DNA from: Synechocystis sp. PCC 6803 substr. PCC-P
GTDB lineage: Bacteria > Cyanobacteriota > Cyanobacteriia > Cyanobacteriales > Microcystaceae
Length of the DNA: 32,000 nt
Direction of reading: 5' to 3'
Assembly (NCBI RefSeq): GCF_000284455.1
Contig: NC_017039.1
Location: 360,001-392,000, forward strand
In this document: positions 5,077-28,151 of the stretch, one piece after another
Numbering within the stretch: position 1 is the first letter of the stretch
Layout of the letters: each line of letters starts with the position of its first letter
Position numbers and translations under genes: made by a program
Notes under the pieces: generated by a model
Databases searched by the model: none
Seen by the model: the letters and a program-made list of their open reading frames with translations, nothing else
Told to the model about the DNA's origin: nothing

Positions 5077-5283
5077 ATGTACGCAATAGAGTTTGAAGCA
5101 GATCTACAAGATGGTGTTCTTACAATTCCAGATCATTACAAATCTCTGAAAAATCAGCATGTACGTGTAGTCATTATGCTAGATGGCCATGGTAATGAAT
5201 TGGAACTACGGGCCTTATCAGATCATTCAGCAACATTGATTGATGAATGGCATGATCCCTCCGAGGATGATGTATGGATCTGA
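5077..5283 (+). CDS. Putative type II antitoxin (small acidic-tailed protein upstream of a MazF/PemK-like toxin)
   Basis: 68-aa ORF whose stop overlaps the start of the downstream toxin-like ORF by 10 nt. Acidic C-terminus (DEWHDPSEDDVWI). Assignment is by context. Confidence 0.6.
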   Translation: MYAIEFEADLQDGVLTIPDHYKSLKNQHVRVVIMLDGHGNELELRALSDHSATLIDEWHDPSEDDVWI

Positions 5284-5621
5284 AGCAGGCAGAAGTCGTC
5301 CTATGCGAGTTCTATTTTTCTGACCTCAAGCAGAATAAACTAAGGCCCGTTGTTGTTTTTAAGGACAATTTGCCCTTCGATGATTTTGTTGGAATGCCGG
5401 TGAGTAGCAGGGTAGGTCAATTAAATGACGATGAAATCGTGTTGGATGAGTCGGATTTTATTGAGGGCCTTCTGTCCAAGTGCTCCAAAGTGATGGTGAG
5501 AAAAATATTCGTCATCTCAAAACAGGTTGTCATCAAAAAGCATGGTACGCTCTCTACCCAAAGCTTTAGTAAACTTCATCTGACTTTCTGTAGGTATTTT
5601 GGATGTGAAAACCAGTCTTGA
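5274..5621 (+). CDS. PemK/MazF-like type II toxin
   Basis: 115-aa ORF. The N-terminus AEVVLCEFYFSD....LRPVVVF..........GMPVSS resembles the MazF/PemK SH3-like fold signature. Paired with a small upstream ORF. Confidence 0.6.
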   Translation: MDLKQAEVVLCEFYFSDLKQNKLRPVVVFKDNLPFDDFVGMPVSSRVGQLNDDEIVLDESDFIEGLLSKCSKVMVRKIFVISKQVVIKKHGTLSTQSFSKLHLTFCRYFGCENQS

Positions 5622-18992: not shown

Positions 18993-19939
18993 TAGTCACT
19001 TCAATTAACGATGAGAGAATTTAATGTAAAATTATGGGGTGTACAAAATGAACAGGTTTAAACAATGGCTTACAGTTTAGATTTAAGGCAAAGGGTAGTA
19101 GCTTATATAGAAGCTGGAGGAAAAATAACTGAGGCTTCCAAGATATATAAAATAGGAAAAGCCTCGATATACAGATGGTTAAATAGAGTAGATTTAAGCC
19201 CAACAAAAGTAGAGCGTCGCCATAGGAAATTAGACTGGGAAGCTCTAAAAAAAGACGTAGAAGAAAATCCCGATGCAAGATTGATAGACAGAGCCAAGAA
19301 ATTTGGAGTGAGGCCGAGTGCCGTATATTACGCATTAAAGAAAATGAAAATAAACAGAAAAAAAAAAGAACTACGTTATCGAGAAAGAAACCGGGAGGAA
19401 CGAGTTAAGTACTATAGAATGTTAAGAGAACTAATCAAGCTCTATGGTAGTCAAGCTATAGTTTACATAGATGAATCTGGATTCGAAGCAATCCAGGCTT
19501 GTATTTATGCCTGGTCAAAAAAAGGAAAAAAAGTTTATGGAGATAGACAAGGAAAAAGGGGAGTCAGAGAAAATCTAGTAGCAGGGAGAAGAAAAGGAAA
19601 AAAAGATTTGATTGCACCGATGGTTTTTACTGGGAGTTTGAATGCAGAAGGCTTTGAAGGATGGTTAAAATTATATTTACTACCCTCCCTCGACATTCCA
19701 TCAATATTAATAATGGATAATGCTCCTATTCATCGTAAAACTGCCATTAAAGAATTGGCTAAAGAAGCAGGTCATGAAGTTCTTTTTTTGCCGAAATATT
19801 CTCCTGATTTAAATGATATTGAGCATGACTTTAGTGCCTTGAAACGAGCTAGAATGTACGCTCCTATTGACACGTCTCTTGATGAAATTATCCGTTCTTA
19901 CTGTGGCGTTTAGCGTCTCAGCCTTATTTGAAACTACTA
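18993..19939 (+). mobile_element. IS630/Tc1-mariner-family insertion sequence (ISY100-like), 947 bp, with TA target-site duplication
   Basis: TA at 18991-18992 and at 19940-19941. Imperfect terminal inverted repeats: TAGTCACTTCAATTAACG versus the reverse complement TAGTAGTTTCAAATAAGG (13/18 match). One 282-aa transposase ORF fills the element. Confidence 0.9.
19065..19913 (+). CDS. IS630-family (DDE) transposase
   Basis: 282-aa ORF. N-terminal HTH-like region (GKASIYRWLNR), then VYIDESGF and ILIMDNAPIHRK....LFLPKYSPDLNDIEH (DDE/D motif context). Confidence 0.95.
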   Translation: MAYSLDLRQRVVAYIEAGGKITEASKIYKIGKASIYRWLNRVDLSPTKVERRHRKLDWEALKKDVEENPDARLIDRAKKFGVRPSAVYYALKKMKINRKKKELRYRERNREERVKYYRMLRELIKLYGSQAIVYIDESGFEAIQACIYAWSKKGKKVYGDRQGKRGVRENLVAGRRKGKKDLIAPMVFTGSLNAEGFEGWLKLYLLPSLDIPSILIMDNAPIHRKTAIKELAKEAGHEVLFLPKYSPDLNDIEHDFSALKRARMYAPIDTSLDEIIRSYCGV

Positions 19940-21176: not shown

Positions 21177-22337
21177 ATGAGAATTTCACACATAATTGCA
21201 GACTTGGCCCCTGAAGCAGGGGGGCCATCCATAACTGTTACCAATTTGACTGATGCCCTTTCCCACCAGAACTTCACCGAAGTTACTCTTTTGAGCCAAT
21301 GCTTAACAGATAGCTCAGTTGTTGCTCCTGCTCCAAACTCTAAAGTTAATCGAATCATTGTAAACAGCTCTCACAGAATTGCCCTATCCCTAGGATTGCC
21401 ATTAAATAACCTACTCCGCTCCCGTTTAAGCTCTTACCCGTCCGACATTATCCATGGCCATGGCCTGTGGCATCCGATTAGCTATTGGAGGAGTCAAACT
21501 GCCAAGCAATATAACATTCCCCTAGTTATCCATCCTAGAGGCATGCTCGAACCCTGGGCCCTCAACTACCGTAAATTCAAAAAACGGATTGCCCTATGGC
21601 TCTATCAAAATCGTGATCTACAACGGGCTCAAATACTGTTTGCCACAGCCAACCAGGAAGCCCAGAGTCTTCGTCATTTTGGTCTGCGTCAGCCTATAGC
21701 TATTACTCCCAACGGCATTCTTTTCCCCACGCTAGAATCTCAAGCATCTCCTCCGGAATCATCACGCCACCGAACAGCTCTATTCCTCAGTCGCATTCAT
21801 CCCAAAAAGGGATTAATGAACCTAATCCAAGCCTGGCATCAAGTTTCCCCCCCAGACTGGCAACTACTCATTGCTGGCCCCAACGAAAATAATCACCGTG
21901 CTGAAGTTCAAGCCCAAATCAAACAACACCAATTAGAGCAAACGATCAAAATCCTTGACTCTGTGGAGGGAGAAGCCAAAGCCAACCTTTACCGTCAGGC
22001 TGATCTGTTTATTCTGCCCACCTTTAGTGAAAACTTTGGCGTCGTAGTTGCCGAAGCCCTTTCCTATGGCATTCCCGTCATCACCACCACTGGGACTCCC
22101 TGGCAAGATCTCCAAACTTACCGTTGTGGTTGGTGGGTAGAACCGACAGTTGCGACTATTGCCGATGCTCTCCAGCAAGCAACAATTCTACATCCCCAGG
22201 AATTACGAACTATGGGGGAAAGAGGTAGAGCATACGTCAAATGCTACGACTGGAATGCCATCGCCCAGGACACCCTTGCCGTTTACCGCTGGATTCTGAA
22301 TCAGGGACCAAAACCTGACTGCGTTATCTTGGACTAG
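21177..22337 (+). CDS. Glycosyltransferase family 4 (GT-B)
   Basis: 386-aa ORF with LFLSRIHPKKGL and LPTFSENFGVVVAEALSYGIPVITTTGTPWQDL. Confidence 0.85.
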   Translation: MRISHIIADLAPEAGGPSITVTNLTDALSHQNFTEVTLLSQCLTDSSVVAPAPNSKVNRIIVNSSHRIALSLGLPLNNLLRSRLSSYPSDIIHGHGLWHPISYWRSQTAKQYNIPLVIHPRGMLEPWALNYRKFKKRIALWLYQNRDLQRAQILFATANQEAQSLRHFGLRQPIAITPNGILFPTLESQASPPESSRHRTALFLSRIHPKKGLMNLIQAWHQVSPPDWQLLIAGPNENNHRAEVQAQIKQHQLEQTIKILDSVEGEAKANLYRQADLFILPTFSENFGVVVAEALSYGIPVITTTGTPWQDLQTYRCGWWVEPTVATIADALQQATILHPQELRTMGERGRAYVKCYDWNAIAQDTLAVYRWILNQGPKPDCVILD

Positions 22338-22341
22338 AGCC

Positions 22342-22395
22342 ATGGCAAGTTTTCTAGCTTTACTGCCCCGCTCCCTGACGACGTTTCCCTTATGA
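22342..22395 (+). repeat. Head block copy 1: 17-codon leader ORF MASFLALLPRSLTTFPL*, truncated by the hicBA cargo
   Basis: Codons 1-15 encode the same peptide as copies at 23300, 24277 and 24980, differing only by synonymous changes. The stop TGA overlaps the hicB ATG (TTATGA). Confidence 0.8.
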
Positions 22396-22646
22396 AAAAA
22401 GTAACCATGACAGTCACTCCCAAGCAAATTTATAACTATACTGTTCTTCTAGAAAAAGAGCTTGATGGCGGTTATCACGCCTTTTGCCCAATGCTCAAAG
22501 GATGCCATTCCCAAGGAGACACCTTTGAAGAAGCCATACAAAACATTACAGAGGCTATTGAACTATACATTGAAAGCTTGATAGCCGAACATCAGCCCGT
22601 TCCTAAGGAAGATTTAATTGTCAAACCATTGAGTATTTTGGTGTGA
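22392..22646 (+). CDS. hicB: HicB-family antitoxin
   Basis: 84-aa ORF with GGYHAFCPMLKGCHSQGDTFEEAIQNITEAIELYIESL, a typical HicB N-terminal domain. GTGA overlap with hicA. An alternative start is ATG 22407. Confidence 0.85.
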   Translation: MKKVTMTVTPKQIYNYTVLLEKELDGGYHAFCPMLKGCHSQGDTFEEAIQNITEAIELYIESLIAEHQPVPKEDLIVKPLSILV

Positions 22647-22873
22647 GCAATCTTCCAAGCGTCCAAGCCAAAGATTTTATTCGAGTAATCAAAAAGCTCG
22701 GATTTTTTCTGGAGCGCCAGAAAGGGAGCCATGCCATTTATAAAAATACCCAGGGTAATCGAGTTGTGGTTCCCATCCATCCCGGAAAAGATTTAAAGCA
22801 GGGGACACTGATGGGCATGATTAAAGATATTGGACTTGAAAAAGAAAAATTTTTTGACTTACTACAAAAATAG
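22643..22873 (+). CDS. hicA: HicA-family mRNA-interferase toxin
   Basis: 76-aa ORF with KDFIRVIKKLGFFLERQKGSHAIYKN.....VVVPIHPGKDLKQGTLMGMIKDIGL, a typical HicA. Confidence 0.85.
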   Translation: MSNLPSVQAKDFIRVIKKLGFFLERQKGSHAIYKNTQGNRVVVPIHPGKDLKQGTLMGMIKDIGLEKEKFFDLLQK

Positions 22874-22884
22874 TAATTTGTGTG

Positions 22885-22935
22885 ATCGCTCATTTGCTTA
22901 GCTTCCTCCAGGAGTACGGTGAATAAATAGGCGAT
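22885..22935 (+). repeat. Tail block copy 1 (...LLSFLQEYGE* plus ATAGGCGATC), orphaned downstream of hicA
   Basis: Aligns with the 3-prime ends of ORFs 23300-23794 and 24980-25390. The last 9 codons are identical in amino-acid sequence and differ only at synonymous sites. Confidence 0.75.
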
Positions 22936-23266
22936 CAACGTCAACGACGTGGCCCAGGCCCACGTTCTCGGATTAACTTACCTTTTGCAGGGGGGAGCTA
23001 CCAACATCTTTAACCTCGGTAATGGCAATGGCTTCTCTGTGCGGGAAATGATTGCAACAGCCCAGTTAGTCACCAATCGCCCCATTCCCGTGCTACAAGG
23101 CGATCGCCGTCCGGGAGACCCCCCGATTTTAGTGGGCAGCAGTGAAAAAGCTCGGCAAATCCTCGGTTGGCAACCCCAATATCCCCTGGCAAAAGATATT
23201 CTGACCCATGCCTGGGCTTGGCACCAACAACGCCATGGCGATAATTCCCCATGCACACAACCGTAG
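22936..23266 (+). pseudogene. 3-prime third of a second UDP-glucose 4-epimerase gene (galE stump)
   Basis: It reads (I)NVNDVAQAHVLGLTYLLQGGATNIFNLGNGNGFSVREMI...GDPPILVGSSEKARQILGWQPQY, collinear with residues ~225-330 of the intact GalE at 11487-12509. No N-terminal Rossmann part. The left junction abuts tail block 1. Confidence 0.8.
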
Positions 23267-23287
23267 CAATGGCGATCGCCAGTTAGC

Positions 23288-23299
23288 TAAACTGTAACC
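23288..23299 (+). promoter_or_regulatory. Candidate -10 box TAAACT placed 6 nt before the unit ATG (possible leaderless transcript)
   Basis: The same geometry recurs at 24265-24276 (TAAACT) and 24968-24979 (TAAAAT). No Shine-Dalgarno sequence precedes these ATGs. Motif-and-spacing argument only. Confidence 0.3.
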
Positions 23300-23794
23300 A
23301 TGGCAAGTTTTCTGGCTTTACTGCCCCGTTCATTGACCACTTTCCTTTATGCCGTTGCGGCCCTACTGAGGTTTTATGGCAACATCGACACCACCCCCAT
23401 CCCCCGAATCCCCCTCACCATCTTTGGATGGAGCTTCCTGGCGTTCACGTTGGGCACAGCGGCTCTCCTGGTTAATCTCGGCCTTGAGTGGAACACTGGA
23501 AATCGAAGCCGAAACCGAGAGATTGAAACAAGAGAACGCGAAACTCGACGAGATAATCTTGCAGACGAAGAAAGAAACCGAGCGTCTGAGGAAAGAGAAA
23601 AAGCCGATCGAGAAAGAGATCGAGCAGATCAAGAAAGAAACCGAGCAGATCAGGAAAGAAAACGAGCGGCTAGCCGTGCTCGAATCCAAAATCGAGGATT
23701 TGTTCTCCAAACACGGTATCAACTTGCCCCTAGCCCAGAAGCCAGAGCAACCCTAATCGATTTCCTTAGCTTTCTCCAGGAATACGGCGAATAA
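23300..23794 (+). CDS. Intact unit 2: small membrane protein with hydrophobic N-terminus, one clear TM helix and a charged heptad-repeat tail (unknown family)
   Basis: 164-aa ORF. TM segment IPLTIFGWSFLAFTLGTAALLVNLGL, then R/D/E/Q-rich 7-aa repeats, ending LIDFLSFLQEYGE. Paralog at 24980-25390. The N- and C-terminal codons differ from the paralog only synonymously. Confidence 0.6.
   Translation: MASFLALLPRSLTTFLYAVAALLRFYGNIDTTPIPRIPLTIFGWSFLAFTLGTAALLVNLGLEWNTGNRSRNREIETRERETRRDNLADEERNRASEEREKADRERDRADQERNRADQERKRAASRARIQNRGFVLQTRYQLAPSPEARATLIDFLSFLQEYGE
23376..23756 (+). other. Alternative +1-frame ORF inside unit 2 encoding a heptad coiled coil (candidate overprinted gene or frameshift product)
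   Basis: 126 codons: ...EIEAETERLKQENAKLDEIILQTKKETERLRKEKKPIEKEIEQIKKETEQIRKENERLAVLESKIEDLFSKHGINLPLAQKPEQP*. ATG and stop are conserved in the paralog (25056-25352). Several paralog differences are synonymous in this frame but not in the annotated frame. Confidence 0.35.
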
Positions 23795-23816
23795 ACGGCG
23801 AGCTTGATAATCTTGA

Positions 23817-24053
23817 ATGAAATTTACCCAATATTTTTTAGCTACCAGACAAAGACCAGATCGGTTAATTATTCACTTGGAGTGGATAGAATACACTATG
23901 AACAATCCTCTCAAGGAAGAAATTCAAACAGACGGTAGAATCAAATTATGGGCTTCCATCCCGGAAATGGAAGGTAGATATCTGCGTGTAGTTTTATTGT
24001 CAGATCGAGAAACTGTCCATAATGCATTTTTTGACCGCTCCTTCAAACCATGA
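23817..24053 (+). CDS. Small TA-like protein (DUF4258-like; family name from memory, moderate certainty)
   Basis: 78-aa ORF with RPDRLIIHLEWIEYTMNNP....DGRIKLWASIPEMEGRYLRVVLLSDRETVHNAFFDRSF. ATGA overlap with the downstream DUF2283-like ORF. Confidence 0.55.
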   Translation: MKFTQYFLATRQRPDRLIIHLEWIEYTMNNPLKEEIQTDGRIKLWASIPEMEGRYLRVVLLSDRETVHNAFFDRSFKP

Positions 24054-24247
24054 AGATTAAGTACTTTACTGATACAGATACCCTTTATATTGAATTTCAG
24101 TCTGCCAATATTGTCGAAACCAGGGATTTGGACGATAACACTTTAATTGACATTGACATGCACGGAAATGTCTGTGCCATAACCATTGAACACGCTCAAC
24201 AAAGAACCAATATTCCTAACATCTCGTTCGAGCAGATTGTGGCATAG
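24050..24247 (+). CDS. DUF2283-like small protein (putative partner of the upstream ORF)
   Basis: 65-aa ORF with MKIKYFTDTDTLYIEFQSANIVETRDLDDNTLIDIDMHGNVCAITIEHA, the typical DUF2283 pattern. Confidence 0.6.
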   Translation: MKIKYFTDTDTLYIEFQSANIVETRDLDDNTLIDIDMHGNVCAITIEHAQQRTNIPNISFEQIVA

Positions 24248-24276
24248 GGCGATCGCCGGTTAGCTAAACTAAGACT

Positions 24277-24336
24277 ATGGCAAGTTTTCTGGCCCTACTG
24301 CCCCGGTCCTTGACCACTTTCCTTTATAGCGAATAA
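24277..24336 (+). repeat. Collapsed unit 3: head block fused directly to the last 9 nt of the tail block (19-codon ORF MASFLALLPRSLTTFLYSE*)
   Basis: 17 head codons, then AGCGAATAA (compare GGCGAATAA at 23786-23794). Preceded by GCGATCGCC-GGTTAGCTAAACT as in unit 2. The Uma2 ATG follows 6 nt after the stop. Confidence 0.75.
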
Positions 24337-24342
24337 TTCCCC

Positions 24343-24975
24343 ATGACCCTCACCGTTGCCATTCCCCGCATTGAGATCGCCCCTGGTAGTCATTTAACTA
24401 TCCCCAATGTATCCTGGGTAGACTTTATCTCTTTGCTAAAAGAACTCGGAGAAAAACGTCATTCCCGACTCGCTTACTATCAAGGCCGACTGGAAATCAT
24501 GGCTCCCCTGGCCCTACATGAAAAACCAAATCGTCTGATTACCGATATCGTCAAAGCTATTTTGGAATGCCAAGAGCGCGACTGGGAAGACTTTGGCTCC
24601 ACCACCCTTAAACAGCCTCCCTTCGCTGGCATAGAACCAGATAGCTGTTTTTACATCCAAAATGCATCCCAGATGCGGGAATACAAAAACCTTGATCTGA
24701 ATCAATCTCCCCCCCCAGATTTAGCAATTGAATGCAATTTAAGCTCCAAAACCGTCATCGATGCGTACCAAGCCATTGGCGTTCCTGAAGTGTGGATTTA
24801 TAGCAACAATCAACTACAAATTTACCTTTATTCAGAACAAGGTTATTTAGAAAGCAACCAAAGTCAAGTTTTTCCAGATTTGGCCGTAATGTCAATGATT
24901 CCCCAACTAATTCAAAAAGCTTACCAAGTTGGCACAAGGCAAATGTTGGGTGAGTTGAAGGCACAGCTAAAATGA
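24343..24975 (+). CDS. Uma2-family (DUF820, PD-(D/E)xK-fold) putative endonuclease
   Basis: 210-aa ORF with YYQGRLEIMAPLALHEKPNRLITDIV, EPDSCFYI, PDLAIECNLSS and YQAIGVPEVWIY. Confidence 0.8.
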   Translation: MTLTVAIPRIEIAPGSHLTIPNVSWVDFISLLKELGEKRHSRLAYYQGRLEIMAPLALHEKPNRLITDIVKAILECQERDWEDFGSTTLKQPPFAGIEPDSCFYIQNASQMREYKNLDLNQSPPPDLAIECNLSSKTVIDAYQAIGVPEVWIYSNNQLQIYLYSEQGYLESNQSQVFPDLAVMSMIPQLIQKAYQVGTRQMLGELKAQLK

Positions 24976-24979
24976 ACCT

Positions 24980-25390
24980 ATGGCAAGTTTTCTAGCCTTA
25001 CTGCCCCGCTCCCTGACCACTTTCCTTTATGCTGTGGCGGCCCTACTGAGATTTTATGGCAACATCGACACCACCCCCTTCCAACTCATCCCCCTCACCA
25101 TCCTCGACTGGAGTTTCCTGGCGTTCACGTTGGGCACAGCGGCTCTCCTGGTTAATCTCGGCCTTGAGTGGAACTCTGGAAATCGAAGCCGAAACCGAGC
25201 AGATCAGGAAAGAGACAGAACAGATCAAGAAAGAGACCGAGCAGATCAGGAAAGACAACGAGCGGCTCGCCGTGCTCGAATCCAAAATCGATTCTTCCTT
25301 CGACCAACACGGTATCAACTTACCCCTAGCCCAGACACCAGAGCAGCCCTAATCGATTTCCTCAGTTTCCTCCAGGAATACGGGGAATAA
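24980..25390 (+). CDS. Intact unit 4: paralog of 23300-23794 (membrane protein with a shorter heptad-repeat tail)
   Basis: 136-aa ORF with the same N-terminus, TM helix and LIDFLSFLQEYGE end. Exactly 84 nt (four 21-nt repeats) shorter than unit 2. Confidence 0.6.
   Translation: MASFLALLPRSLTTFLYAVAALLRFYGNIDTTPFQLIPLTILDWSFLAFTLGTAALLVNLGLEWNSGNRSRNRADQERDRTDQERDRADQERQRAARRARIQNRFFLRPTRYQLTPSPDTRAALIDFLSFLQEYGE
25056..25352 (+). other. Alternative +1-frame ORF inside unit 4 (coiled-coil reading), paralog of 23376-23756
   Basis: 98 codons: ...EIEAETEQIRKETEQIKKETEQIRKDNERLAVLESKIDSSFDQHGINLPLAQTPEQP*. Three near-perfect 21-nt repeats at about 25200-25262. Confidence 0.35.
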
Positions 25391-25466
25391 ATAGGCGATC
25401 GCCCAACCCTTTCCCAACATACTCATTGTTAAGATTGACTAGTCCCCCGTTGCCTGTGAAATAACC

Positions 25467-26012
25467 ATGGTTACCCTGCTGAAATGGACAGTTCCAGACT
25501 ATCACCACCTCATTGAACAGGGGCTATTGGACGGTAAGAAAGTGGAACTTTTAGACGGAGACCTAGTGACCATGGCTCCCGAAGGACCACTCCATAGCTA
25601 CACCACCACCACCGTTGCCGACTATCTGCGCCAAAACCTGCACGGATTAGCTCTAGTGAGGGAAGCCCATCCCATTACCCTGAGTCAATCTGAACCGGAA
25701 CCTGACATTGCCATTGTTCTAGCTCCCCAGGAGCGCTACAAAGAAAGGCATCCTCAGGCCGACGATATTTTTTGGTTAATTGAAATAGCTAACAGTACCC
25801 AAGCCTACGACCTCAACGACAAAAAACAAATCTACGCTCAAGAAGGCATCCCCGAATATTGGGTGGCAGACCTAAGCAAACGCCAATTATTTATTTTTCG
25901 AGCACCAGACAAAGAAGATTATCGCCTGCAACAAACCCACTCCGAAGGTATCATCCGTAGCCAAGCCTTTCCCGAAATAAAAATATCAGTACAAGAAATG
26001 TTCCATTGGTAG
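25467..26012 (+). CDS. Uma2-family (DUF820) putative endonuclease
   Basis: 181-aa ORF with VELLDGDLVTMAPEGPLHSYTTTTV, EPEPDIAIV, WLIEIANST and YAQEGIPEYWVADL. Confidence 0.85.
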   Translation: MVTLLKWTVPDYHHLIEQGLLDGKKVELLDGDLVTMAPEGPLHSYTTTTVADYLRQNLHGLALVREAHPITLSQSEPEPDIAIVLAPQERYKERHPQADDIFWLIEIANSTQAYDLNDKKQIYAQEGIPEYWVADLSKRQLFIFRAPDKEDYRLQQTHSEGIIRSQAFPEIKISVQEMFHW

Positions 26013-26027
26013 CTCTCCGACCATTGG

Positions 26028-26058
26028 CCAAACTGAAACCATGGCAAGTTTTCTGGCC
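26028..26058 (+). repeat. Head block copy 5 (fragment): CCAAACTGAAACC-ATGGCAAGTTTTCTGGCC, marking the right edge of the array
   Basis: Matches the first ~18 nt of the unit ORF plus 13 nt upstream. Homology then ends (short ORF MASFLAVFLLLCFW*). Confidence 0.65.
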
Positions 26059-26176
26059 GTATTCTTGCTCCTTTGTTTTTGGTAACCAACTGAGCGACCG
26101 CAGCATTCTCCCAAATTCTAAATAAATTCCGTTGTTTTTGCTGTCGAACCAGTTAATTTTGGCGTAAATTATTACC

Positions 26177-26719
26177 ATGCAACTTAATCAATACCAGCAA
26201 GGAGAATATCACCCTGGAGCCCCGCTGTTTAAACAATTGCTATGGTATTCCATTGGGGATTTTTTAGTCCAAACGCCCCTACTGCCCATGGCCAGGCTGA
26301 AGGTAGCTATCCTGCGATTATTCGGGGCCAAAATTGGTACAGGAGTTAATATCAAACCCCACGTCAAGATCAAATTCCCTTGGCGGCTAACCCTGGGCAA
26401 TTACGTTTGGCTGGGGGAAAAATGTTGGATTGATAACCTCGCCCCGGTTACCATTGAGTCCCATGTGTGTATTTCCCAGGGCGTTTACCTATGCACTGGC
26501 AACCACGATTGGAGTAAACCCAGCTTTGACCTAATCACCAGTCCGATTCACATCGCCGCTGGCAGTTGGATCGGTGCTAGCGCCGTTATTGGACCTGGAG
26601 TACGGGTGAATGAAAAGGCAGTTTTGACTTTGGGGTCTGTGGCTGTCAAAGATTTGGCGGCTATGACCATCTACTCTGGCAATCCCTGTCAGCCGGTCAA
26701 AAAACGGCAACTCCTCTGA
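26177..26719 (+). CDS. WcaF-like hexapeptide-repeat (LbH) polysaccharide O-acetyltransferase
   Basis: 180-aa ORF with LWYSIGDFLVQTPLLPMARLKVAILRLFGAKIGTGVNIKP...GNYVWLGEKCWIDNLAPVTIESHVCISQGVYLCTGNHDW. Confidence 0.85.
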   Translation: MQLNQYQQGEYHPGAPLFKQLLWYSIGDFLVQTPLLPMARLKVAILRLFGAKIGTGVNIKPHVKIKFPWRLTLGNYVWLGEKCWIDNLAPVTIESHVCISQGVYLCTGNHDWSKPSFDLITSPIHIAAGSWIGASAVIGPGVRVNEKAVLTLGSVAVKDLAAMTIYSGNPCQPVKKRQLL

Positions 26720-26782
26720 AATTACGCCAGGTAAAAACTAACTTTTGTTGTTAGTACCTTTAGGGATTTGATCTAATTATTG

Positions 26783-28057
26783 ATGAAGCTAACCATTCTT
26801 AACCAATTTTATCCCCCTGACTATGCGGCCACGGGGCAACTGCTAGAAGAACTGTCCATCGAACTGTCCAAAAAAGAGCTTGATGTGCAAATTTTTGCTG
26901 GGCAACCGGGTTATGCATTTGATCAGGAACTTGCCCCATCCCAGGAAGTCTCTCAGGGAGTTTTGATCAGAAGAACTAGGACTTCCCGCCTCTGGCCCCA
27001 GAGATTACGGGGGCGGGCGATCGCCGGAATTTTGTATTGTTTACGCGCCATCGTCAAACTCAGATTAGGGAGCAGACTGGGGGATTTGATTCTTGTTACT
27101 ACAGAGCCTCCCTACCTAATGGTGGTGGCCTATATCCTGCATTTGTTATACAAAAAACCCTATATCTGCCTGATTTATGATCTCTACCCCGATGTGGCAG
27201 TGAAGTTGGGGGTGGCGAAGGAAAAGGATGCCATTGTTAAATTGTGGCGTTGGCTAAATCGTTTAACTTGGCAAAAGGCAGAGGCTATTATTGTGCTCAG
27301 CGAGAGCATGGCTAAGGTGATCGCGGACCAACAACCAGCCCTAGCAGGGAAAATTGAGGTGGTCCATAACTGGGCGGATGGAGTGTTAATCCAACCAAGG
27401 GCCAAAGCTGATAACTGGTTTGCCCAACGCCATGGCTTGGACCGGACATTTACCGTACTGTATTCCGGTAATCTGGGACGGTGCCACGACCTGGAAACTG
27501 TTATGGAAGCGGCTCGCCTACTGCAGCAAGAAGAAGTCCAGTTTGTTTTTATTGGAGCTGGTGCTAAGGCCCCAGTCTGTCAAGAATTCGTACAACGCCA
27601 CCAGTTAACTAATTGTTTATTTTTGCCCTTCCAACCCAAGCCGGTTTTGCCCTTTTCCCTCACCGCCTGCGACCTGAGCTTGGTTTCCATTTTGCCCCAG
27701 GTGGAAGGGCTGGTGGTCCCGAGCAAATTCTATGGCTGTTTGGCCGCAGGCACGGCGATCGCCGCCATTTGTCCCCCCCATTCCTATTTACGGGAAATTA
27801 TTGCCGAAGCTCAATGTGGAGCAACCATTGATAACGGAGACGGGGCAGGATTGGCTCAATTTATCCTTCAACTTAAGAATAATCCCCGCCGAACAGCAAC
27901 CATGGGGCGTCGAGGCCGCCAATATTTTGAAGAAAACTTTACCCTGGACACCATTGCGGACCAATACCTATCTGTCATTACTAAAGTGGGCGATGAAGAA
28001 GTCGCCAAGCTCCAAGCAAATAAATTCTGTAACCATCCTGACTCAAGCTTGCTTTAA
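26783..28057 (+). CDS. Glycosyltransferase family 4 (WcaI-like)
   Basis: The track ORF starts at TTG 26780; ATG 26783 is preferred. Motifs: ILNQFYPPDYAATGQLLEEL, VLYSGNLGRCHDL, VVPSKFYGCLAAG. Confidence 0.85.
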   Translation: MKLTILNQFYPPDYAATGQLLEELSIELSKKELDVQIFAGQPGYAFDQELAPSQEVSQGVLIRRTRTSRLWPQRLRGRAIAGILYCLRAIVKLRLGSRLGDLILVTTEPPYLMVVAYILHLLYKKPYICLIYDLYPDVAVKLGVAKEKDAIVKLWRWLNRLTWQKAEAIIVLSESMAKVIADQQPALAGKIEVVHNWADGVLIQPRAKADNWFAQRHGLDRTFTVLYSGNLGRCHDLETVMEAARLLQQEEVQFVFIGAGAKAPVCQEFVQRHQLTNCLFLPFQPKPVLPFSLTACDLSLVSILPQVEGLVVPSKFYGCLAAGTAIAAICPPHSYLREIIAEAQCGATIDNGDGAGLAQFILQLKNNPRRTATMGRRGRQYFEENFTLDTIADQYLSVITKVGDEEVAKLQANKFCNHPDSSLL

Positions 28058-28151
28058 CCAAAGGGTCTGACAAACAAGTCATCTGCCACCGGACAACTGA
28101 ATCAATCCACTTGTTAGCTACAGTGATGGCAGGAATTTAGGGTTTATCAAG

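Follow-up and report, generated by a model that had tools for sequence, protein, structure and literature searches.

The sequence analysed here, referred to below as the window, is a stretch of 32,000 nucleotides (nt) from the chromosome of Synechocystis sp. PCC 6803 substr. PCC-P (NC_017039.1, positions 360,001 to 392,000 of the forward strand). It holds a long plus-strand polysaccharide-biosynthesis cluster with an aminotransferase, epimerases, methyltransferases, GT2 and GT4 glycosyltransferases and a GDP-mannose dehydratase. Within this cluster, two short coding blocks, termed head and tail, recur in several copies. The region was found to comprise two intact genes, slr1079 and slr1082, together with a minimum of three broken copies, represented by head 1 and tail 1, by head 3 and by head 5. 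With a probability of about 0.85, the blocks are the 5' and 3' ends of the multi-copy gene family slr0489/slr1079/slr1082 together with leftovers of further copies, that is, the single-coding, protein-constrained ends of a dual-coding family accompanied by young deletion remnants. The cause is an ordinary one, gene decay, acting in a family that is unusual and already described.

Intact and truncated gene copies at the locus

The blocks were located by searching the window with a head pattern and a tail pattern, and a shuffled sequence served as the control. The head pattern matched four times on the plus strand (22342, 23300, 24277 and 24980) and the tail pattern three times on the same strand, with ends at 22926, 23794 and 25390; neither pattern matched the shuffled control. 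The set of four heads given in the first-pass annotation of this DNA proved incomplete, as a fifth head lies at 26041, beyond the coordinates that it had covered. All features are collected in Table 1.

Copy 2 is slr1079 and copy 4 is slr1082. In both, the long frame (L) is an open reading frame (ORF) within the family range of approximately 129-181 amino acids (aa), with the N-terminus M-x-SFLALLPR-x-LTTFLYAVAALLRFY and the C-terminus DFLSFLQEYGE, and in both a second ORF (S) is embedded in the +1 frame, beginning at L codon 26 and ending about 12 codons before the L stop codon. An intact gene is read twice, giving the membrane protein L from frame 0 and S from the overlapping frame. Unlike these two genes, copies 1, 3 and 5 lack the S frame and most of L, and all end before codon 26. 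The fragments at 22342, 24277, 26041 and 22892 keep only 6-17 head codons or 9-12 tail codons, and are remnants of L/S members rather than members. The heads and tails correspond to the single-coding ends of the intact genes, and the leaderless promoter motif of the family is present.

In a preprint (Hadjeras et al., bioRxiv 10.64898/2025.12.20.695498), slr0489, slr1079 and slr1082 were described as 'genes-in-genes' in which L and the internal out-of-frame S are both translated. The two products co-immunoprecipitated, an interaction reported for Slr0489 and Slr1079. Production of Slr0489L alone slowed growth unless S was present, so that S was reported to neutralise the toxicity of L for Slr0489, and no lysis was seen on overexpression (bioRxiv 10.64898/2025.12.20.695498). 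The broken copies 1, 3 and 5 were found mentioned in neither the main text nor the available supplement text of the preprint. The family is thus already described, and the remnants are new but unremarkable.

The family comprised 392 database homologues at E <= 0.01, and every named one was cyanobacterial. The N- and C-termini were the best conserved stretches of the family alignment. A sample of 32 intact copies was collected from 19 loci (within fetched loci L001-L033) of other cyanobacterial genomes and metagenome bins, and these comparative data independently support an L/S gene-in-gene family well beyond PCC 6803, as judged from sequence. Family lengths step by 7 aa (129, 136, ... 181), which equals copy-number changes of a 21-nt (heptad) repeat. 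This repeat lies at 23544-23670 and 25180-25260 in the window, occurs family-wide, and reads as RADQER-type repeats in frame 0 and as an EQIKKET-type coiled coil in frame +1. The idea that the open +1 frame is a by-product of purine-rich repeats was dropped, being reversed by the preprint, by the conservation of the frame and by the dual-coding substitution pattern described below. A phage origin was likewise rejected, as no relatives of the family were present in IMG/VR.

The HIP1 palindrome GCGATCGC was seen within 25 nt after the stop codon in 10 of the 32 intact copies, usually 3-5 nt after it (e.g. 25394-25403), and within 45 nt upstream of the start codon in six; its background frequency in the fetched loci was 1 per 1751 nt. 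In tandem arrays, the entire spacer consists of HIP1 and a -10 box. Separately, one Logan contig (L043, SRR28113748, 4432-5945) carries a 210-aa Uma2 gene, an slr1082 N-terminal half joined to an slr0489-like C-terminal half, and a GGACT-domain gene. This hybrid is either a real paralogue recombinant or an assembly chimera across the repeat.

Table 1. Features of the L/S array and its interleaved genes, in window coordinates
Feature	Position	Strand	Details
Head 1, orphan 5' remnant of an L/S gene	22342-22395	+	17 codons and TGA; family homology 22342-22387
hicB antitoxin gene, ssr1765	22392-22646 (chromosome 382392-382646)	+	Pfam HicB_lk_antitox, E = 5e-12
hicA toxin gene, ssr1766	22643-22873	+	Pfam HicA_toxin, E = 2e-21
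Tail 1, orphan 3' remnant of an L/S gene	22892-22926	+	Last 9 codons and stop intact
galE-type epimerase gene, 3' third, left by deletion	22934-23266	+	105-aa ORF; matches only positions 234-329 of TIGR01179 galE
Leaderless promoter region of slr1079	23271-23299	+	HIP1 palindrome, then -10-like TAAACT (23288-23293), which ends 6 nt before ATG
slr1079, long frame L, intact copy 2	23300-23794	+	164 aa; 100% identical to Slr1079; family alignment
Slr1079S, embedded +1-frame ORF	23376-23756	+	126 aa; ORF list
Small-gene pair, 78-aa ORF and DUF2283 ORF	23817-24247	+	ATGA overlap; Pfam DUF2283, E = 6e-17
HIP1, -10 TAAACT and head 3	24248-24336	+	19-codon orphan remnant; family homology to 24327
Uma2-family nuclease-like gene	24343-24975	+	210 aa; Pfam Uma2, E = 7e-18; PADLOC PDC-S17, E = 1e-35
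slr1082, long frame L, intact copy 4	24980-25390	+	136 aa; chromosome 384980-385390 per preprint supplement
Slr1082S, embedded +1-frame ORF	25056-25352	+	ORF list
Second Uma2-family gene	25467-26012	+	181 aa; Pfam Uma2, E = 2e-35; PADLOC PDC-S03, E = 4e-18
Head 5, older decayed remnant	26024-26085	+	Degenerate -10 CAAACT; ATG at 26041; 14-codon ORF MASFLAVFLLLCFW-stop

Silent variation at the single-coding ends

The first-pass annotation had reported that all differences among the copies of the blocks are synonymous, and codon-by-codon comparison reproduced its list of variable codons: nine in the head (codons 1-15 of heads 1-4) and five in the tail. The minimum number of substitutions was 10 for heads 1-4 and 6 for the nine tail codons of tails 1, 2 and 4, so that the earlier figure of about sixteen without a replacement was matched exactly. 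Fourteen of these substitutions fell at third codon positions and two at first positions (Leu codons), with none at second positions. By chance, a synonymous fraction of 0.27-0.33 would be expected for the head and 0.19-0.26 for the tail, and the joint chance probability of 16/16 synonymous changes was 7e-11 to 5e-9, varying with the assumed transition bias. Copy 1 is cut short by a stop after 17 codons and copy 3 by one after 19, again as first reported. The silent-only pattern is confirmed as real and statistically strong.

The limits of the blocks were set by where the peptide stays identical, and directly beyond them the peptide changes (PL versus LY in copy 1, IAHL versus IDFL in tail 1). 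In addition, nine of the 16 substitutions distinguish the two intact genes from each other. Only seven involve truncated copies, and all seven of these variant codons are also present in intact homologues of other strains.

The frame in which the blocks are conserved is that of Slr1079L and Slr1082L. The S frame was open in all 32 intact homologues and began at L codon 26 in 28 of them, and the +2 frame contained 2-14 stops. This leaves just L codons 1-25 and the final 12 as single-coding. Diversity and the ratio of nonsynonymous to synonymous polymorphism (pN/pS) were computed on 29 intact homologues. At L codon positions 1, 2 and 3, the diversity was 0.23, 0.08 and 0.52 in the head and 0.20, 0.16 and 0.50 in the tail, with corresponding values of 0.24, 0.15 and 0.22 and of 0.27, 0.16 and 0.17 in two regions of the overlap. 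Head and tail had pN/pS values of 0.18 and 0.20, respectively, compared to 0.52-0.97 in the overlap in either frame; pS itself was 0.66-0.82 at the two ends and 0.21-0.33 in the overlap in both frames. The head and tail are strongly constrained as protein, while their silent sites are unconstrained.

Silent change is suppressed in the overlap because the third position of an L codon is the second position of an S codon. At the single-frame ends, L is conserved and third positions are free, and paralogues and alleles therefore diverge there almost solely synonymously. It is the reading of the intervening stretch in two frames that limits silent variation to the ends of the gene. The first-pass annotation had been right to infer protein-level selection in this frame, as the termini are the most conserved part of the proteins and the codon-aware check that it had proposed gave the low ratios above. 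It had overlooked that the genes are dual-coding, which is why the silent variation is concentrated in head and tail.

In the CACIAM 05 orthologue of slr1079 (L004 6752-7267), a CGA to TGA change creates a nonsense codon at L codon 83, and the S frame is still open. This is as expected if losing the toxic partner is tolerated and losing S is not.

Origin and decay of the broken copies

Comparison with related strains showed that head 3, tail 1 with its galE fragment, and head 5 arose by deletion or replacement within the array. The array lies at the boundary between a variable and a conserved part of the polysaccharide locus: left of 24321, PCC 6803 and CACIAM 05 carry different glycosyltransferase clusters, and CACIAM 05 is 97.4% identical to window positions 24321-28077. 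The identity begins exactly at 24321, the end of head 3. To the left of the match, CACIAM 05 has a full-length slr1079-like copy (L004 6752-7267) and a 74-nt spacer ending in '...cctttttagcaaataattccccATG'. The head 3 junction in PCC 6803 reads '...ttcctttatagcgaataattccccATG' and shows CCTTT microhomology. Given this microhomology and the CACIAM 05 arrangement, a deletion joined head codon 17 to the end of the spacer, removing codon 18 onwards, the tail and the 74-nt spacer and fusing the head just upstream of the Uma2 gene. Over 49 nt, head 3 also shows no difference from an intact gene of Synechocystis salina LEGE 06099 (L002:3036).

For tail 1, weaker homology reaches back from the intact codons to about where the S stop codon would be. 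Tail 1 and the following 'ataggcgatcaac' match an S. salina copy located ahead of a complete galE-type epimerase gene, and the corresponding position in S. salina LEGE 06099 (L002 1848-2855) is occupied by a complete galE. Beside tail 1, a deletion removed the 5' two thirds of galE, with its junction within a HIP1 remnant (GGCGATC|AAC).

Head 1 corresponds to positions 1-46 of the DNA profile model, and the 30 nt upstream of it resemble the upstream region of the LKSZ1 homologue. The hicB and hicA genes sit between head 1 and tail 1, and we infer a replacement through which these two fragments came to bracket the hicBA toxin-antitoxin pair. A hidden 1-nt insertion in the T-run of head 1 codons 13-15 (ACG ACG TTT) was considered and rejected, as intact or near-intact copies at L011 and L028 carry ACG ACG TT[CT]. 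For the source of hicBA, the sole plasmid match was a 74%-identical hicB in Gloeothece.

Positions 22313-22341, the last 30 nt of a glycosyltransferase gene (...PDCVILD-stop), resemble the promoter region of the single-copy Synechocystis LKSZ1 homologue (L005 7971-8000). The 3' end of this glycosyltransferase gene may derive from what was once the upstream region of an L/S gene.

Head 5 retains six conserved codons (26041-26058) followed by unrelated sequence, and is identical in CACIAM 05. The same site is occupied in S. salina LEGE 06155 by a frameshifted pseudogene of full length with several replacements (L007 11795-12238), and in PCC 7339, LEGE 06099 and LEGE 00031 by 45-nt remnants. An inverted match of the divergent part of head 5 to tail 2 (20 nt, 80%) was no better than 28 other chance-level pairs, and a reading of head 5 as an inverted tail was rejected.

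The retained codons were then compared with intact homologues at the same positions, and matches were found for 15/15 codons of head 1, 17/17 of head 3 and 9/9 of tail 1. As all remnant codons occur in intact homologues, no substitution need postdate the truncations, and on these matches the remnants are young enough to have no change of their own. They display the silent variation of their intact ancestors. The silent-only pattern is inherited in this way and carries no information on the fragments themselves. Of two explanations offered by the first-pass annotation, the recent truncation of diverged, functional paralogues is therefore favoured, both by these codons and by the full-length copies or complete neighbouring genes found at the remnant sites in other strains.

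Remnants decay with time, as was shown by other strains and by head 5. A DNA profile search returned many partial copies within related loci, and an IS4/5 transposase gene interrupts a copy in S. salina LEGE 00031. Remnants in other genomes carried the replacements L7P, L8P, S3G and F15L. The decayed heads included MASFLAPLPRSLTTFFLNN-stop, MASFLAPPPRSLTTFFLNN-stop and SAGFLAP..., in which the start codon had changed from ATG to TCG; among decayed tails, one had a CAG to TAG change and two had a frameshift in common. The remnants had 3 private allowed changes to 15 replacements or stops, and the intact copies 29 to 23 (Fisher P = 0.006). The three youngest remnants of the window (head 1, head 3 and tail 1) are without any change and so uninformative on relaxed constraint. 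The wider sampling suggested in the first-pass annotation thus did uncover replacements in the remnants of other genomes, while the ends of intact genes stayed constrained.

These fragments resemble gene remnants of accessory-gene islands in that they are homologous to part of an intact gene, have a full-length counterpart in sister strains (at the same site for head 3 and head 5, with a complete galE beside tail 1), show junction microhomology and decay progressively, the older ones showing relaxed constraint. They differ from remnants generally, whether these arise by deletion, insertion sequence (IS) insertion or paralogue recombination, in that the youngest ones of the window look deceptively 'selected', because the parent genes, owing to their two-frame architecture, vary only silently at the retained ends.

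Several points weigh against this account. The hicBA pair was found in none of the other fetched loci. The translation and interaction of L and S rest on the preprint and not on the present analysis. At the 2.6% divergence between PCC 6803 and CACIAM 05, approximately three changes would be expected in 123 nt of neutral remnants, and the probability of none is 0.04. The unchanged remnants are either younger than the CACIAM 05 split, or refreshed by gene conversion, or weakly constrained. In the strain comparison that the first-pass annotation had proposed for dating, all assemblies of the PCC 6803 type carried the same remnants and offered no dating polymorphism.

Continued overwriting of the remnants by gene conversion from intact paralogues, which would hide their age, is a tentative possibility. 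The heads are mosaic, head 1 matching the CACIAM 05 copy in codons 1-12 and the L011/L028 type in codons 13-15; head 3 with its 29 upstream nt is 89% identical to the slr1079 head, and a lack of private changes over 123 nt would be a little surprising in remnants of the age of the strain split. Conversion tracts would, however, need to be about 50 nt long, and head 5 and the remnants of other strains were not rescued from decay. Such conversion would be compatible with, and not opposed to, an origin of the fragments as remnants of dual-coding genes.

Alternative readings and relation to known systems

A function of the heads as retained expression signals was also weighed. Heads 1, 3 and 5 precede hicBA, a Uma2 gene and an acetyltransferase operon, respectively, and each head might supply a leaderless promoter and start, with the mini-ORF acting by coupling or re-initiation. 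The slr1079 mRNA is leaderless (PMC4195498). The slr0489 gene is transcribed leaderless as well, and its promoter drives downstream genes. With the start sites of these two genes taken from the literature, a -10-like TANNNT ending 6 nt before ATG was found in 18 of the 32 intact copies and also before heads 2, 3 and 4, and the hexamer before head 3 is TAAACT, identical to that of slr1079. The stop codon of head 1 overlaps the hicB start codon (ATGA), and the HicB peptide VTMTVTPK detected by proteogenomics places the hicB start at or before 22392 (bioRxiv 10.64898/2025.12.20.695498), which confirms that start. The stop of head 3 lies 6 nt before the Uma2 ATG.

Against this, only a degenerate -10 is present at head 1 (TAGAGC) and head 5 (CAAACT). 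The acetyltransferase-proximal remnants of PCC 7339, LEGE 06099 and LEGE 00031 have no -10 region and yet persist; all three carry replacements, and that of LEGE 00031 has lost its ATG. The available supplement text, which did not cover the supplement of the 2014 paper, contained no transcription start or initiation data for these positions, and retention of tail 1 is left unaccounted for. We regard retention as expression signals as doubtful. By the same measure it is rather unlikely that broken copies are reused as expression platforms, remnants of one selfish module transcribing and translationally coupling the next, or, jointly with that idea, that cassette swapping at the variable edge of the polysaccharide locus may use the repeated heads and tails as anchors of homology. 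The short ORFs do not resemble regulatory leader peptides or upstream ORFs, as they end at 17, 19, 14 and 19 codons and the start and -10 are lost in some strains.

The second explanation of the first-pass annotation, that the short head and tail peptides (MASFLALLPRSLTTFPL, MASFLALLPRSLTTFLYSE) are translated micro-proteins under purifying selection, is very unlikely. The blocks of this genome contain no replacements and the heads have a leaderless start available, but, as set out above, no substitution need postdate truncation. With wider sampling the proposal fails, since remnants elsewhere carry replacements, stops, frameshifts and a lost start codon. The truncated copies also stop at different points (after 17, 19 and 14 codons). 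No ATG lies in frame with tail 1; a TGA closes that frame 23 codons ahead of the stop, and translation could begin only at a TTG or a GTG, one of each, in non-conserved sequence.

Conservation of a nucleic-acid signal, either an RNA structure or a recombination site like attC of integron cassettes, is hardly credible: the blocks do flank unrelated small gene cassettes, HIP1 does lie beside many copies (10/32 within 25 nt after the stop against the background above) and the galE deletion junction does fall in a HIP1 remnant, but variation is strictly codon-phased in both the window and the family, contrary to what the first-pass annotation had held would overturn its reading, there is no head-tail inverted repeat above background, and the window ORFs include neither integrase nor tyrosine recombinase; all that is present is an IS630 transposase, 2.4 kb upstream. 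When folded over their first 80 nt, the four heads scored no better than shuffles (z = 0.14 to 0.61), the structures were all different between copies, and RNA structure in the heads was rejected. Integron-type cassettes were likewise set aside, with no integrase among the window ORFs and no hairpin sites.

L/S genes occur in tandem arrays within polysaccharide gene clusters, and the PCC 6803 array is interleaved with hicBA, the pair of 78-aa and DUF2283 ORFs and the two Uma2 genes. Seven HicA peptides are listed in the supplement of the preprint (bioRxiv 10.64898/2025.12.20.695498). The 78-aa ORF had no family match; it and its DUF2283 partner were found only in assemblies of the PCC 6803 type and by tblastn in none of the 39 loci L001-L039, and from sequence the pair looks like a toxin-antitoxin module. 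PDC-S17 and PDC-S03, matched by the Uma2 genes, are PADLOC phage-defence candidate families. In the equivalent arrays of S. salina, DUF29, MNT/HepT and up to five Uma2 genes lie among the copies; in LEGE 00031, where up to five Uma2 genes stand beside L/S copies, one of these Uma2 genes (L018 13103-13864) has QERQRAE repeats like the L repeats at its end. Elsewhere in the window, a MazF/PemK-type toxin gene (5274-5621) and an IS630-family transposase gene (19065-19913) lie inside the glycosyltransferase cluster.

The L/S genes are comparable to type II toxin-antitoxin systems and other defence-island cargo (HicAB, MNT/HepT, Uma2, DUF29) in that L alone is reported to be toxic and to be neutralised by S, and in that their copies are interleaved with such genes. 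Unlike type II systems, in which the partners have adjacent genes, L and S share a single gene in overlapping frames, and they matched no PADLOC model beyond coiled-coil noise. The preprint drew a comparison with the Rz/Rz1 spanins of phage lambda (bioRxiv 10.64898/2025.12.20.695498). The likeness lies in a +1-frame ORF within the gene for a membrane-anchored helical protein, the embedded product having a proline-rich N-terminus. In contrast to Rz/Rz1, L/S loci lie in chromosomal polysaccharide clusters with no phage context and no IMG/VR relatives; Slr1079S and Slr1082S contain no cysteine, hence no lipobox, no lysis followed overexpression, and the pair does not qualify as spanins.

Purely silent differences in a truncated ORF may come from its intact ancestors and then say nothing about the fragment, which calls for caution in reading such patterns. 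Here, the pattern reflects ordinary decay and is not evidence for selected micro-peptides. With its intact and broken copies, the array marks a spot for accessory genes that is prone to recombination; in a model cyanobacterium, this is relevant to engineering of the region.

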